In this document: piece after piece, positions 2,760 to 58,314 of the stretch | Position numbering within the stretch: position 1 is the stretch's first letter | Layout of the letters: every line of letters begins with the position of its first letter | Virus record (IMG/VR): IMGVR_UViG_2595698834_000001 | Coordinates: 64,001-128,000 of that record | Length of the DNA: 64,000 nt | Origin: a virus | Lineage: Duplodnaviria > Caudoviricetes | Direction: 5' to 3' (one strand) | Notes under the pieces: generated by a model | The model's database searches: none | Told to the model about the DNA's origin: nothing | What the model saw: only the letters and a program-made list of their open reading frames with translations | Program-made: the position numbers and the translations under genes

Positions 2760-3121
2760 TCCTTCTCGTCTTTTTGTTCATCAGCGAGAGTTTCGTCTCC
2801 GTCTCCGATTTCATCAGCTTCTGCTAACTCTTTCATGTACTCTTCTTGAGCCTCTTTGAAAATATCACCTGTTGGGTCAAGTCTTTCGATAACTTTATGC
2901 TGCACGTTGACATGATCGATTAAATTCTGCACTAATTGGCGGTCGGCGTTAGTAACAGCTCGTGCAATAGTAACGACATCGGCAACGTTGATTACTTTAC
3001 GTAGTGTATTTTTTAATAGCTTCTGTTGGCTTTCGTCTGCTAACTTTCCAGTCATTAGGTACATTACCAAGCGGCGTAGTTCTTTTTCGTTTAGTGAGTC
3101 TGCTGTTTGTTGTTTTGTCAT
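2756..3121 (-). CDS. conserved hypothetical protein
   Basis: 121-aa ORF, packed in replication operon. Confidence 0.75.
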   Translation of the reverse strand: MTKQQTADSLNEKELRRLVMYLMTGKLADESQQKLLKNTLRKVINVADVVTIARAVTNADRQLVQNLIDHVNVQHKVIERLDPTGDIFKEAQEEYMKELAEADEIGDGDETLADEQKDEKE

Positions 3122-3122
3122 G

Positions 3123-3443
3123 TTAATTTTCGTCTCCTTCGTCCAAGACGTCTAAGATGTCATCTTGGCTCTCTTTTAGTTTTAATCTAATATTTTCTTG
3201 ATATTCTTCAGGAAGTGACTCTACAAGTACTCTGTAGCGTTCCTCCTGTACTTCTGTTAAGGTTTCAATAGTTCGAGATAACCCGCTTAACACTTTCATT
3301 AAAGCATTAGCAGTCTCCCCTAGTGTTACTTTGTCTGAGAGGGGAATGTTGTCTAGTTCCTTTTCAAACTGCTCGTCTGACATGTCTCCATATTCGTGCT
3401 CTATGATCAATGATAATACATCATTAAGAGTTTGTTCTCTCAC
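3123..3443 (-). CDS. conserved hypothetical protein
   Basis: 106-aa acidic helical ORF, GTG start with AGAGGAGG SD. Confidence 0.75.
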   Translation of the reverse strand: MREQTLNDVLSLIIEHEYGDMSDEQFEKELDNIPLSDKVTLGETANALMKVLSGLSRTIETLTEVQEERYRVLVESLPEEYQENIRLKLKESQDDILDVLDEGDEN

Positions 3444-3455
3444 TGTGTTCCTCCT

Positions 3456-4073
3456 CTACTTGACTCCGGAGCTACCTAAACCTTTTTCTCCTCTTTCACT
3501 TGGGGGGAGTTGGTTGGTTTCTTCGAAGACAGCTTTGATTTTAGGTAAGAAAGAAGCTTGGGCAATTCGCTCACCTTTACGAATGTATACAGTTCCACGA
3601 GGAACAACATCTCGATAAATTTTTCGGAACCCGTCTTCATCTGGGTAACCAATAAGTTCAATATCTTTCTTAAGTTGATCAGCGGCTGATTTCTTTGCAG
3701 CACTCGCTACCTCTTCCAACGGAACCTTGTTACCTTGGATATCAATTGCAAAGTCCACCATTGTGGAGTCTACGAAAACATTTTTGACAAGAACTTGAAT
3801 CCCATCTCGGTATGTACCTTCTACAATACCCGGTGCGTTCGCAACGATCAACGGAGTTTTAGCGGCGATACCGCTTCGCAGTGTGACAAACATGCCTGCC
3901 TTGACTGGATCAAACGCTAATTTAAGATTCGTAGGAATACGAGTCGACTGAAAGGTTGCAGTCGGAACTAAACGACTTTCAGCAGCATAGATGTCATACG
4001 CAAAGTCATTTTCATAACCTTGAGTAGGGTGTGTAGCATCATTCTTTAAAACGTGAACTTTAAGTTCTTCCAT
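3456..4073 (-). CDS. dut: trimeric-type dUTPase with internal insertion
   Basis: Motifs AYDIYA, LRSG, GIVEGTYRDG, KGERIAQ, RGEKGLGSSG. Confidence 0.85.
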   Translation of the reverse strand: MEELKVHVLKNDATHPTQGYENDFAYDIYAAESRLVPTATFQSTRIPTNLKLAFDPVKAGMFVTLRSGIAAKTPLIVANAPGIVEGTYRDGIQVLVKNVFVDSTMVDFAIDIQGNKVPLEEVASAAKKSAADQLKKDIELIGYPDEDGFRKIYRDVVPRGTVYIRKGERIAQASFLPKIKAVFEETNQLPPSERGEKGLGSSGVK

Positions 4074-52668: not shown

Positions 52669-54327
52669 TTATGCTTCCCAGTCGTTTACTACATTTCCGT
52701 TATCATCTTTTCCGCCTTGCGGTGTTGAGTTTGTATTAGCCTGCTGTTTTGATTGACCATCTTTTCCTACGTTTTGGTTGAACGAGTCTTTACCATTAAC
52801 ATTGTCCATGTTTCCATCATAGCCTGTTTGCTGTGCTAAGAATTGATTGGCGTCCATTTGACGTTGGTACTCGACTTGTTCTTGCTGCATAATCTGACCT
52901 AGTCGCTGTACATGTACGCCTGCAAGTGTAACATCTCCGCCCTCAGTATCAGGGTATCCAAGCTCTTTACGAATATCATTGATTGTAAGACCGATCTTAG
53001 CTTTAGACTCTAGGATAGAGATGATTTCAGCCTCTGTCTTGGCATCCCCGCCCACGAAGTTGAATACGTAGTCTCCACCAAACTGGGAAACGATATATTT
53101 GTTTACTGCGTCTTCGATAAACTTTAAAAGAGGTTCTAATCCTTTATCCTTAGAGTTTCGATACTTCTCTGCACTACTTCCTTCATTCAGCGTGTTACCC
53201 GAATGACCTGTTGCTCCTCCTCTATTCGGGAAGTTAATTTCTGAGGGGTCAATAGAATAAATGGAACAGATAACGTTGATCAAGTAGTTTAGCCACTTCT
53301 CGAACTCCATATCTTTCGACGACTGTGTCATGTTGACAAACTTAACGTCTTCTGCTGTAATAACGGGTATCTTCCAAGCTCCGTTTATTCCACTGAACAT
53401 TGAAGTCCATTCTCTTCTGAACGAGGTGAGCGCTTGGTTAGATTGTTCTTGTCCTGTTTTAATATGTAGCAGTCCTCGAGTTGTCCCGCCTTGAGCGAAG
53501 AACCTAGCGTTAAACACCTCGGTGTTGTCGTGATACTGTAAGTGGTTTAAAGCGATCTCTAGTTCAGGGTATCCGTACTTACCAACTGTTAGGTCTGTTC
53601 GAGGGTTACTTACTTCCCAAGCCATTTCTTTTGCCTTAAACTTAGCAACCACTTTGTCGTCTATGACTTGCACATATCGAACACCATCTTTGGCTTTTCG
53701 TTCCTTACCGTCTTCATCTACTGCGACATATACCGTAGAGGCGTCCACAGCTTTAAAGTTATGTAAATCACCAAGTTTGTCATATACTAGCTCGAAGTTT
53801 ATCTTGTCATATGTAAGTCTGTCTCTAACGAGCTTCTTAACGAATGATCTAAAGTTATCACGAGTGAAATCGTTATCTATTCGTCCAGTCTTCTCGATAA
53901 AGTTCTCAATTTCCTTAATCTTCTTCTTATTATGGTCATTAGGTTCTTGCAGAGGGTCTTTTAACCTAATCTCATACCCTACGCCTTTATCACTGTTACG
54001 AGCGGGTGTACAGAACATAGAAACTTGGTTTACCCTAGTTATGATAATTGCGTTGAGGATGATATTCTTCCTCGACCATAGCTTGAGCATCTGAAGGAGG
54101 TTTTGCTTCCCGTGTATAGAAGGAGCTTCTTTGAAGTCCGGGTTCATTGACATACTACCAATGATCGGCTCCTCGTACGCCTTTGGCTTGTTTGACTTCG
54201 TATTCTTTCCTTTTTTTAGGATTGCATCTTCCTCTATCTGCTTGATTCGGACAGCCATGTCATCGTTAATGTCTATAATATTGTCCTGCTGTTTTCTGCC
54301 TTTAAAAAATCCGTCTAGCAAACCCAT
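52669..54327 (-). CDS. portal protein
   Basis: RNPR-like SNPRTD..YGYPELE, RFFAQGGTTRG, DMEFEKWLNYLIN, IDPSEINF motifs. Confidence 0.93.
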   Translation of the reverse strand: MGLLDGFFKGRKQQDNIIDINDDMAVRIKQIEEDAILKKGKNTKSNKPKAYEEPIIGSMSMNPDFKEAPSIHGKQNLLQMLKLWSRKNIILNAIIITRVNQVSMFCTPARNSDKGVGYEIRLKDPLQEPNDHNKKKIKEIENFIEKTGRIDNDFTRDNFRSFVKKLVRDRLTYDKINFELVYDKLGDLHNFKAVDASTVYVAVDEDGKERKAKDGVRYVQVIDDKVVAKFKAKEMAWEVSNPRTDLTVGKYGYPELEIALNHLQYHDNTEVFNARFFAQGGTTRGLLHIKTGQEQSNQALTSFRREWTSMFSGINGAWKIPVITAEDVKFVNMTQSSKDMEFEKWLNYLINVICSIYSIDPSEINFPNRGGATGHSGNTLNEGSSAEKYRNSKDKGLEPLLKFIEDAVNKYIVSQFGGDYVFNFVGGDAKTEAEIISILESKAKIGLTINDIRKELGYPDTEGGDVTLAGVHVQRLGQIMQQEQVEYQRQMDANQFLAQQTGYDGNMDNVNGKDSFNQNVGKDGQSKQQANTNSTPQGGKDDNGNVVNDWEA

Positions 54328-54351: not shown

Positions 54352-54615
54352 TTACTTGTACTTGTGTTTAAAAACTTTGCGACTGCTTAGAACTGTTTGA
54401 TAGTCCTTTTCTACATCCTCTCCGTCCGAGTCTGTAAGTAGTACTGTATTGTCATTAAGAGCTGTTTGTATCTCAAACATCTCTCCGTTTAATACTGCGT
54501 AAACAGTAACATCTTCGCCTTGAATATGATGATAGTAGGATACTACTTCAATCCAGTCAAGGTGACCTACAGCCCGTTTAGCTTCCATCCATTTTTTATC
54601 TTGGCTAAATTTCAT
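54352..54615 (-). CDS. small conserved protein upstream of portal (start revised to MKFSQDKKW)
   Basis: AAGGAGG SD before ATG 54615; late box at 54632-54641. Confidence 0.7.
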   Translation of the reverse strand: MKFSQDKKWMEAKRAVGHLDWIEVVSYYHHIQGEDVTVYAVLNGEMFEIQTALNDNTVLLTDSDGEDVEKDYQTVLSSRKVFKHKYK

Positions 54616-54748
54616 AACATCCTCCTTAATATAATATAAGACTAAGGTGCCTCTATTTACAATTATATCATACACAGGTACTTACGCTTGCTTACCTTAA
54701 AAAGAGAATAGAAAAACCACACCATAGGGGTGTGGTTTGTAGTAGTTA

Positions 54749-54871
54749 TTAACTTCGGCTAGCTACAGCGTGCTTATCTAAGTCCCACGCACCTGTCATA
54801 TGGAAACCTGCTTGTTTAAATCCTAGTCCCATTCCTCCCGCACCACAAAAGAAATCATTTACTTTAAGCAT
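54749..54871 (-). pseudogene. truncated DNA (cytosine-5) methyltransferase remnant (40 aa)
   Basis: MLKVNDFFCGAGGMGLGFKQAGFHMTGAWDLDKHAVASRS*: SAM-binding motif I (FxGxGG) and motif II only; SD AGAGGT; terminator follows at about 54712-54738. Confidence 0.8.
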
Positions 54872-55264: not shown

Positions 55265-55286
55265 TTCGTATTCCTCCTTTTTTTGA

Positions 55287-55359
55287 TGGGTCCCAAGGGA
55301 TTCGAACCCCCTCTCTTACCAGTTATGAGCTGGCAGCTTTACCACTAAGCTAGAGACCC
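55287..55359 (-). tRNA. tRNA with CAT anticodon (elongator Met or Ile2)
   Basis: Full cloverleaf GGGTCTC...CTCATAA...GGTTCGAATCC...GGGACCCA; paired 1:72, so not initiator; no encoded CCA. Confidence 0.9.
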
Positions 55360-55532
55360 ATAAGTTAGTGTAGGGTCAAACCGGCAACCACCCTACCTGT
55401 ATTCAGCTCTCTTACCTGAGACCCGAGGGTACCACTCGGCAGGTAAAATTACCTCTACGGTTTTATTTCATTCGGTTTTTAAAAGTACTCTCGGGGGTCC
55501 GCATTGGCAAGAGGCGTGAGAGCTTCTATGAC

Positions 55533-55808
55533 GTAGAAGAGGAAGAAAAAATTCATTATATCTTGTAGTTGCTACATTCCATAGCCCAACGTGCGGTGAA
55601 CCGGATTATTTGTACGTCGTCCGTCGTTAATCGTATACCCGTTTCCCATTGTCACCAATATTGGATTGTTAGTAATGTCCCTATTTGAAAGGTTAAATAG
55701 TTGAGATATGCTCTCAACAAAAGCAGGTTTTCCTCTTCTACTGCTGGTTTGCACCAGCTATCAAGGTAGAGATTGTCTACCCTCATAGCTAAGGCAAATG
55801 CCTAGCTG
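55533..55808 (-). ncRNA. putative structured ncRNA immediately 3' of DIP1984-like gene
   Basis: Three 5' hairpins (one with GCAA tetraloop), perfect 12-bp closing stem 55730-55741/55533-55544, internal hairpins and a 7-8-nt periodic tract at 55601-55680. Confidence 0.65.
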
Positions 55809-55809
55809 C

Positions 55810-56331
55810 TTACATGTACTTATCAGCGTTTCCAAAAGAGATGTAGTGAGTATGGTTTGCTCTTTCAATGGCGTTAGAAAGTGAGTTAGCAAACTTCTCT
55901 AGTTCCTCTCCTTGAGATTTGAGCGACTTAGGATCGAACTGGGCGTACTTGTATTCTACTTCTGAGGAGTTGTAACTTGGTAAACGTTCAGTTTTCTTAG
56001 CTTGACCATAACGTTTCAGAAGAGAAGCTTCTGCTCTCAGTTGCTTAGCTAACTCCAAAGCTTCAACAATTGTGTAAACTGTACCTGTTGCAGTTTCGAC
56101 AGTCGATCCTGAATTGGCTGCTGCGATCTTTAAAGAGATTTTTCTGTAGTCATTCCGAACATTATTTAGCTCTTCTGTGACTTCTTCGAATGTTCTCTCA
56201 GGTTTTTCGTACTCTTCACCTTTCTGAGCTGTTACGAATGCGATATCTTCACGTTCACGTACCAGTTCATGAAGTTTACGAGAGATGGCATTCTTTAATG
56301 GTAATGCCTCAAACAAATAAACTTTTGTCAT
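55810..56331 (-). CDS. DIP1984/DUF6847-like helical protein
   Basis: L.EAL.L...I...L..L N-terminus, I..AN, TI.EAL, C-terminal FD.........L.......L...I...N pattern; family call by recognition only. Confidence 0.7.
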   Translation of the reverse strand: MTKVYLFEALPLKNAISRKLHELVREREDIAFVTAQKGEEYEKPERTFEEVTEELNNVRNDYRKISLKIAAANSGSTVETATGTVYTIVEALELAKQLRAEASLLKRYGQAKKTERLPSYNSSEVEYKYAQFDPKSLKSQGEELEKFANSLSNAIERANHTHYISFGNADKYM

Positions 56332-56364
56332 ATTTATCGTCTCCTTTAATTTGACTGTAACTAC

Positions 56365-56394
56365 ACTATAGCATATAGCATGTTATACTGTCAA
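56365..56394 (-). promoter_or_regulatory. sigma-A-type promoter of DIP1984-like gene
   Basis: TTGACA-18 nt-TATAGT with TG extension, followed by GTAGTTACAGTC. Confidence 0.78.
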
Positions 56395-58125: not shown

Positions 58126-58248
58126 AAGGTGTCTCACCTCTCGTAAGGGTATGAGGTTGAGCGGTGATAGAGTCACCTCCATAGGATTACGGGAGCATTC
58201 ACTGGAGCCCCCTTGCATATAGAAGTGGCTAGCTAGCCCATTTAAGGA

Positions 58249-58314
58249 CGATCTGAGAGGAGTCGAACATCTTTACCTGCCGCAGCACTGCTTTTACCAA
58301 TAAGCTACAGACCG
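58249..58314 (-). pseudogene. pseudo-tRNA with truncated anticodon arm
   Basis: Acceptor stem, D arm GCTT/AAGC and TTCGACT loop present; anticodon arm reduced to TGC-TGCG-GCA. Confidence 0.6.

Follow-up and report, generated by a model that had tools for sequence, protein, structure and literature searches.

A DUF6847 gene and the structured RNA that adjoins it are a real, conserved two-part module. We analyzed the module in a window of 64,000 nt (positions 64,001 to 128,000 of the IMG/VR record IMGVR_UViG_2595698834_000001, Caudoviricetes), where it occupies positions 55533–56394 and where the minus strand holds the promoter, the gene, and the RNA elements (Table 1). The phage record that contains the locus has 149,844 bp and terminal repeats, and its closest relatives are the Agatevirus phages SDFMU_Pbc, Bobb, and Bp8p-C (Bacillus pumilus/subtilis), with 87–91% identity over the locus. 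The original prediction for this DNA, a gene with an adjoining structured periodic RNA, was confirmed. Judged from the aligned sequences, the motif in the RNA changes with the protein clade, being ACG/ACA, (A/C)CC, or G(U/C)A(C/U). The RNA is absent from Rfam 15, and the module is a candidate for a new kind of ribonucleoprotein. On balance, we lean towards a module that makes a protein-RNA particle, in which the protomers would each bind one periodic site.

Gene and RNA architecture

The sigma-A promoter claimed in the original prediction is near-consensus and includes the TG extension, and the gene was found at the predicted place on the minus strand. The non-coding stretch behind it comprises 449 nt, from 1 nt past the stop codon up to a tRNA-Met gene. 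Its first 284 nt are the RNA, in agreement with the prediction of structured non-coding sequence right after the stop codon. No terminator was present between the gene and the RNA in the window sequence, and a search of the window gave no promoter belonging to the RNA itself. Early expression of the module may be proposed on the sole basis of its sigma-A-type promoter.

The 284-nt RNA has a minimum free energy (MFE) of −85.5 kcal/mol, compared with a mean of −60.3 kcal/mol for shuffled sequences (z −5.44), and 0/200 shuffles folded as well. The hairpins described in the original prediction all lie where it had placed them, although H2 is longer than described. The predicted 12-bp stem around about 185 nt (P4) is perfect and encloses exactly 185 nt. 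The 5′ strand of this closing stem is purine-rich and the 3′ strand is pyrimidine-rich (window 55730–55741 and 55533–55544, respectively).

We tried a known RNA family as a candidate and rejected it: in three Rfam 15 scans at E up to 1, which covered the window plus 8 plus 18 loci, no family (including GOLLD, ROOL, and tRNA-like RNAs) matched the RNA. Elsewhere in the scanned loci, only tRNAs, riboswitches, and one group II intron were matched. This intron (RF00029, 52.5 bits, with a 600-aa open reading frame (ORF)) lies in Bacillus sp. WMMC1349 (L007 4400–6299, minus strand), about 900 nt past the module and on the opposite strand.

Conservation in phages and prophages

With 87–93% identity to those of the three other Agatevirus phages, the non-coding stretch equals the gene in conservation. 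The indels among the four phages (1, 2, and 6 nt) leave no reading frame conserved in the RNA. Protein homologues with 47–51% identity were found on Bacillus chromosomes and in 17 prophage-like contigs of IMG/VR. These prophage homologues share the RNA, including the three hairpins, the long closing stem, the inner hairpin, and the tract, and a terminator is located about 45 nt 3′ of the closing stem.

Covariation was determined on a set of 13 sequences that are less than 97% mutually identical, using a structure that was specified by hand and comprises 38 pairs in 5 helices. In this structure, 97.6% of the cells were paired, compared with 37–51% when the partners were slid by 1–3 columns. The number of pairs changed on both sides was 8, versus 0–3 in the slid controls. 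The covariation score of 0.239 compares with at most 0.095 for the slid controls and was reached by 0/500 shuffles.

A covariance model of the RNA 5′ domain, searched against 91 Bacillaceae genomes, gave strong matches (115–148 bits) exactly at the 4 loci of close homologues. The matches begin 1–4 nt past the stop codon, and the phage genome contains a single copy by the same model. One weak match away from a copy of the gene, in G068 (24.5 bits, E 0.006), was treated as noise. The RNA 5′ domain occurs only adjoining the gene in the 91 Bacillaceae genomes and the phage genome. Moreover, an RNA near the stop codon with a long stem and a row of AC sites about 7 nt apart was found in the window and in 13/13 representatives of the clade. 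No conserved neighbour gene was observed in any clade; the neighbours are unrelated housekeeping genes.

Periodic tract

The tract of the window contains five units (GGAAACG, GTATACG, ATTAACG, ACGGACG, and ACGTACA) at a spacing of 7–8 nt, which are evenly spaced short motifs with variable spacers of the type recognized by TRAP and HutP. The chain of five AC sites was matched by 2/300 dinucleotide shuffles, and the ACR chain by 1/100. The degenerate units that follow, AAUAAUCCGG and UUCACCGCACG, line up with clear units of the prophage homologues. A chain of five AC(G/A) sites at 7–8 nt was present at 23 of the 25 phage and prophage loci, where shuffles reach it in 0–5/100 cases; the two loci that fall short are L054 and L055. 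Five units were reached in 13/13 cluster representatives, and seven units at a spacing of 6–9 nt in 8/9 prophage representatives (shuffles, 0–3/300). In the alignment of the phage and prophage clade, the AC columns are kept and the bases between them vary. The chain tests and the alignment thus bear out the predicted fixed 7-nt register with variable content for this clade. In every clade, the pooled autocorrelation of AC has peaks at 7, 14, and 21, which are absent from coding and upstream controls. In the metagenome set described below, the peak is broader, at 7–8.

Other details of the predicted tract fared less well. Conservation among the four phages does not extend to the additional upstream units ACTAACA and ATCCAATA, and the terminal AATCC, which had been suggested as a signature, is confined to the phages and does not occur in the prophage homologues. 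The description of the tract as weakly paired was roughly right only, since the predicted unpaired probability in the window is slightly higher in the tract than in the rest of the RNA (0.52 vs 0.41). RNAalifold pairs part of the tract, and no compensatory change was found in any such pair.

The DUF6847 protein

A hidden Markov model search matched the 173-aa protein to Pfam DUF6847 (PF20935) with 33.5 bits (E 4.8e-8; gathering score, 27 bits), with residues 39–161 corresponding to profile positions 22–138 of 141, and a whole-genome search returned an equal result. The NCBIfam model DIP1984_fam (NF038048) gave 40.8 bits (E 2.4e-10) over near full length, against a cut-off of 70 bits. The identity proposed in the original prediction therefore holds at the Pfam cut-off, and the protein is a divergent DIP1984 relative rather than an NCBIfam member, because its score is under the NCBI threshold. 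The protein was assigned to phrog_25222 (unknown function) with an E value of 1e-113, and its other Pfam matches were two sub-threshold DUFs only. PADLOC models gave no match at E up to 0.1, and membership in a defence system was rejected as a candidate on this result.

The AF2 model of the protein, built on an alignment of 112 sequences, has a predicted local distance difference test score (pLDDT) of 97.5 and is predicted to consist of four long helices (6–31, 48–75, 88–109, and 134–161) and a few short strands. A profile of the 112 relatives matched PDB 3KDQ (E 5.4e-13). A Foldseek search of the PDB returned 3kdq_C (E 2.2e-5; template modelling (TM) scores, 0.68/0.75) and nothing else below E 0.4. 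The predicted structure superposes on this DIP1984/3KDQ fold, which is the fold of the family. The 3KDQ entry contains 4 chains and is described as a functionally unknown conserved protein from Corynebacterium diphtheriae. In the viral fold library, the matches were all uncharacterised phage proteins, and the ESM Atlas gave only clusters named hypothetical or DIP1984 family; an assignment of function from structure was consequently rejected, as these two and the PDB yielded only uncharacterised relatives. Similar predicted folds (TM about 0.6, BFVD) were observed in uncharacterised proteins of Aeromonas, Vibrio, Erwinia, Cronobacter, and Acinetobacter phages, and weaker BFVD fold matches to the model were observed in giant viruses.

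A profile search of 1.84 billion representatives yielded 230 clusters (50% identity) at E up to 0.001. Across the family, N73 is invariant and R99, S152, and N159 are near-invariant. The family is acidic: the median isoelectric point (pI) is 5.44, that of the window protein is 6.36, and 5/112 proteins are above 7. In the titles and abstracts searched, DUF6847, DIP1984, septicolysin, and 3KDQ were linked to no function or RNA; supplements could list the motif under another name.

Distribution beyond the phage and prophage clade

The prediction that homologues are followed by related structured RNAs holds in the prophages, in a second clade, beside canonical genes, and on plasmids. The DUF6847 gene is present in 9/91 Bacillaceae genomes, and a second Bacillaceae clade shows 35–41% protein identity. 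The RNA of this second clade has a single long hairpin past the stop codon and a closing stem, (A)UAGAAGGAG / CUCCUUCUAU, with strands about 130–150 nt apart. In the loop lie a hairpin, about seven units whose core is CC/ACC, and a second hairpin, GGUCGNUGACC; 3′ of the closing stem there is a terminator. The motif core in this clade is (A/C)CC, as opposed to ACG/ACA in the phage and prophage clade.

The closing stem of the second clade, AGAAGGAG / CUCCUUCU (L014–L018, about 30–45 and 175–195 nt past the stop codon), is near a Shine-Dalgarno/anti-Shine-Dalgarno duplex when compared with the 16S rRNA 3′ end. The likeness may be a coincidence, because the stem of L022 is unrelated. With a Shine-Dalgarno-like closing stem, the RNA could conceivably act as a decoy of the 16S rRNA 3′ end or mimic it.

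Canonical DIP1984-like genes were found in 21/401 sampled Bacillota genomes, and an RNA of 200–240 nt lies 3′ of the canonical gene at 16/20 Bacillota loci. The closing stem of the canonical RNA covaries, with 10 of its 12 predicted pairs compensatory. The other parts of this RNA are G(U/C)A(C/U)NNN units, an ACUACC box, and a G-rich tail, RGGGYGGG-N-GGG. In a metagenome scan, relatives were encoded by 540 of the 586 examined stretches; 80 loci were kept, and 73 of these had at least 260 nt downstream. The G-rich tail was found at 65/73 of these loci, mostly 165–245 nt past the stop codon. In the canonical form, it reads GAGGG(U/C)GGG-N1-7-GGGG (L023–L041, L061–L140, and L142), and it may form a G-quadruplex-like structure or bind protein. 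Neither the phage clade nor the Acinetobacter plasmid form has this tail.

In PLSDB, the gene was found on 371 plasmids, 342 of which are from Acinetobacter, and also in 5 phage records. The Acinetobacter plasmid copies are often mislabelled septicolysin. A cyanobacterial plasmid carries the canonical RNA form, an A. baumannii plasmid carries a 10-bp closing stem with GUUAC units and without the G tail, and an Enterococcus plasmid carries a related stem-closed RNA form.

RNA-library contigs

For one prophage homologue (L009), the gene and the RNA are both covered by contigs from the RNA libraries of 4 studies. In run X5, the cover on this locus is confined to 2984–3829, which begins 17 nt 5′ of the ATG and ends at the predicted terminator; the flanks are empty, and one 721-nt contig spans the stop codon. 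The contig depth, which is a poor measure, was higher in the RNA part than in the coding part in 4/4 runs, by about 1.4- to 13-fold. Neither the uncovered parts of the locus in runs X4 and X6 nor the contig breaks within the tract can be interpreted. The contigs are consistent with transcription and accumulation of the RNA.

Downstream extension and neighbouring features

In the phage, the RNA is followed by a 172-nt non-coding extension that is weakly structured (z −1.53) and in which no terminator-like site was found before tRNA-Met. The extension was considered as part of the RNA fold and was rejected, given this z value and its absence from prophages, which have the terminator instead. Because no terminator intervenes, the extension and tRNA-Met may belong to one precursor that is cut by RNase P. 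The features of the module and of this downstream region are summarized in Table 1.

Table 1. Features on the window, in the order of transcription.
Feature	Position	Strand	Basis
Sigma-A-type promoter, TTGACA, 18-nt spacer, TG-extended TATAGT	56365..56394	-	11/12 consensus matches
Ribosome-binding site AAAGGAG, 9 nt 5′ of ATG	56341..56347	-	Read from sequence
173-aa DUF6847/DIP1984-like protein gene, ATG at 56331	55810..56331	-	ORF; Pfam PF20935; phrog_25222; AF2 model; 3KDQ
Hairpin H1 (GCUAGGC / GCC-U-UAGC)	55788..55806	-	Fold; 94.5% of cells paired in 13 homologues
Hairpin H2 (UAU.AGGGUAGA / UCUACCUU.AUA)	55759..55787	-	Fold; 99.2% paired, one compensatory pair
Hairpin H3 (GCUGGU-GCAA-ACCAGC)	55743..55758	-	Fold; 95.4% paired; AU/GC/GU exchange at one pair
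Closing stem P4, 5′ strand (GUAGAAGAGGAA)	55730..55741	-	99.1% paired; 4/9 counted pairs changed on both sides
Hairpin H5 in closed loop (GUUGAGA-GCAUA-UCUCAAC), 7 bp	55700..55718	-	Fold; 97.8% paired, 2 compensatory pairs
Periodic tract: five clear NNNN-AC(G/A) units (55647–55611), then degenerate AAUAAUCCGG, UUCACCGCACG	55590..55647	-	Chain tests, alignment
Small hairpin H7 (GUAG-CAA-CUAC), weak support	55566..55576	-	MFE only
Closing stem P4, 3′ strand (UUCCUCUUCUAC)	55533..55544	-	Fold and covariation
Phage-specific conserved non-coding extension, 172 nt, from RNA to tRNA-Met	55361..55532	-	>90% conserved in four Agatevirus phages
tRNA-Met (CAU), directly downstream; probably same transcript	55285..55360	-	tRNA calls

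Several other features of the window were observed. A fifth, weak tRNA-like match at 58248–58314 (minus strand) scored 30.7 bits in Rfam, with a gathering score of 29, and was not called by ARAGORN. A 40-aa ORF at 54749–54871 (minus strand), which contains DFFCGAGGMGLGFKQAGF, resembles by eye a truncated motif I of a DNA cytosine-5 methyltransferase and may be a gene fragment or part of a split gene. A 107-aa ORF at 54352–54675 (minus strand) matches phrog_1108, which is annotated as portal protein, and lies just upstream of a 552-aa ORF at 52669–54327 (minus strand) that occupies the place of the portal gene as annotated in related phages. The 107-aa ORF may encode a separate small head protein, or the family may be mislabelled.

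Proposed working of the module

According to the arrangement of its parts, the module would work as follows. From the strong sigma-A promoter, the DUF6847 gene would be transcribed straight on into the RNA. Past the stop codon, three hairpins would form, and the long stem would then clamp the ends of the 185-nt loop. The loop would display a row of five to seven sites with an (A/U)AC core, here ACG/ACA, at 7–8 nt from one another. Several copies of the predicted four-helix-bundle protein would bind one site each, so that the RNA would wrap along or around the protein oligomer, and the working unit would be the particle and not the protein alone. We infer the direct binding, the oligomer and its use of one protomer for each unit, and the biological role. 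A role in conflicts between mobile elements and their hosts is suggested because the module is present sporadically in phages, prophages, and plasmids. We regard as possible, though doubtful, a still broader picture of a multi-phylum ribonucleoprotein class, in which a four-helix protein ring or short filament would place one protomer on each 7-nt unit of a stem-clamped loop, would use a clade code of ACG/ACC/GUAC, and would serve mobile elements in conflict with their hosts or with rival elements.

Several observations weigh against the proposed particle. The number of independent covariation events is small, because most of the compensatory changes split two lineages, the phages and the prophages. 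The strict periodicity test was significant in 2 of 6 second-clade RNAs. Among 14 canonical RNAs, the AC test was significant only in L040 (0/300) and L037 (4/300), and the 3-mer test only in L034 (0/100) and L041 (3/100). Because these single-sequence tests are mostly non-significant, the periodicity of the family as a whole is drawn from the pooled autocorrelation and from by-eye alignments. A recognisable RNA signature is missing at 3/20 Bacillota loci (L032, L035, and L036) and at 8/73 metagenome loci. Across the RNAs folded, the predicted unpaired probability was 0.34–0.52 in the tract and 0.34–0.42 in the rest, so that the tract is not clearly single-stranded. The acidic pI of the family would be unusual for a protein that coats RNA. 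Furthermore, contigs from RNA libraries prove neither transcription, nor strand, nor a single transcript.

Alternative explanations

The position of the RNA, which starts 1–2 nt past the stop codon with no promoter of its own found, would also suit a cis-acting 3′ untranslated region whose structure only stabilises or autoregulates the upstream mRNA, by blocking 3′ exonucleases or as a site of self-repression, with the job of the protein elsewhere. The RNA-library contig that joins the gene and the RNA agrees with such a region, as does the terminator after the closing stem in prophages and chromosomes. However, a stabiliser would need far less than about 285 nt, five conserved helices, and a conserved motif register, the motif shifts with the protein clade, and no other partner gene that the protein could act upon is conserved. 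The higher contig depth of the RNA than of the coding part in all four runs is a weak hint in the same direction. We consider this explanation unlikely. It is rather improbable, in our estimate, that the RNA acts apart from the protein and merely shares its transcript, for example as a regulatory RNA, a platform for tRNA processing, or a site for a host RNA-binding protein. Such action would account for the phage copy, which is located within a tRNA cluster and continues into tRNA-Met with no terminator in between, and would be compatible with an acidic protein. Against it, the RNA stays joined to the gene in prophages, chromosomes, and plasmids with no tRNA nearby, no orphan copies were found in the 91 genomes or the phage genome, and the motif co-varies with the protein clade.

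The original prediction also envisaged a module resembling type III toxin-antitoxin systems. In such a module, a toxic protein would be neutralised by direct binding of the RNA, and the pair would stabilise mobile elements or abort infection. The module is indeed a self-contained cassette of a protein and a repeat RNA that occurs sporadically (9/91 Bacillaceae and 21/401 Bacillota genomes) on 371 plasmids, in prophages, and in phages. The defining features of type III systems are nevertheless lacking. In place of long repeats upstream of the toxin gene with a terminator, the RNA lies downstream in a reversed gene order, no terminator separates it from the protein gene, and its units are 7–8 nt long, in contrast to the repeats of ToxI, CptI, and TenpI, which are tens of nt in length and form pseudoknots. 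Neither PADLOC, nor Pfam, nor the fold identified a known endoribonuclease toxin (ToxN/AbiQ, CptN, or TenpN): PADLOC gave no match, and the fold matches only 3KDQ. A toxin-antitoxin module of this type is thus hardly likely. It is barely conceivable that the tract is a product of chance, of low-complexity sequence, or of an unannotated small protein gene. A 60-aa ORF (55572–55754) does overlap the tract, and small ORFs are annotated in this region in the phages Bobb and Bp8p-C. These annotated ORFs differ between the phages, and a small ORF within the RNA was rejected as a candidate, because the indels among the four phages break its frame and no family match was obtained for it in NCBIfam, PHROG, or PADLOC. 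Chance is opposed by the fold z value and by the presence of covariation.

The protein-RNA particle, in which protomers would read the periodic sites, is the explanation that we prefer. DUF6847/DIP1984 is a widespread orphan family with a solved structure. The presence of an RNA beside nearly every member provides the first testable hypothesis for the family, namely that of an RNA-binding protein with a dedicated partner, and adds a sizeable RNA class beyond Rfam. If the periodic-binding model is true, the module would represent a new bacterial and phage ribonucleoprotein architecture with a simple, evolvable recognition code. It would then be of interest for RNA biology, for phage-host conflict, and for the design of programmable RNA scaffolds.

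Comparison with known systems

The protein of known structure that is closest to the window protein is 3KDQ, which has the same family and fold. The window protein is longer (173 vs 154 aa) and belongs to a divergent branch with 23–24% identity, and no function or RNA partner for 3KDQ is on record in the titles and abstracts searched. Among toxin-antitoxin systems, ToxIN, CptIN, and TenpIN have an RNA that precedes the toxin gene, with a terminator between them, repeats of tens of nt, and a toxin that is an endoribonuclease. The module resembles them in being compact and mobile and in combining one protein gene with a repeat RNA, in phages and plasmids, but its RNA comes after the gene with no terminator between, its units are short, and its protein has no endoribonuclease match. 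In Ro60 with Y RNA, a structured RNA is likewise encoded next to its presumed protein partner, and GOLLD and ROOL are large phage-borne RNAs near tRNA genes, comparable to the ornate RNA found here among phage tRNA genes. The module differs from these systems in that it has no Rfam match and no Ro-like protein, and its architecture is different.

The systems most comparable in the proposed mode of reading are TRAP and HutP, to which no homology was found using Pfam and Foldseek. The RNAs they read are 5′ leaders over a terminator or antiterminator, whereas the RNA of the module follows the stop codon of its own gene and is itself followed by a tRNA in the phage or a terminator in prophages. 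HutP of the B. subtilis hut operon, which reads UAG in two sets of three, is itself an antiterminator that works upstream of the hut genes. The module is similar in that a trinucleotide plus four variable bases gives a 7-nt register, and HutP is a homo-oligomeric reader. It differs in the lack of any sequence or fold relation, in its 5–7 units, and in its extra helices and closing stem. TRAP (MtrB) forms a beta-sandwich 11-mer and recognizes (G/U)AG at intervals of 5–6 nt in the 5′ leader of the operon that it regulates. In contrast, the module has a predicted four-helix bundle with no Pfam relation to TRAP, a spacing of 7–8 nt, and an RNA 3′ of its own gene in a stem-closed loop. As in TRAP with the trp leader, identical subunits would each read an evenly spaced motif, with about 50 nt wrapped on the oligomer: the tract covers about 49 nt in seven steps, and TRAP covers 55 nt in eleven steps.

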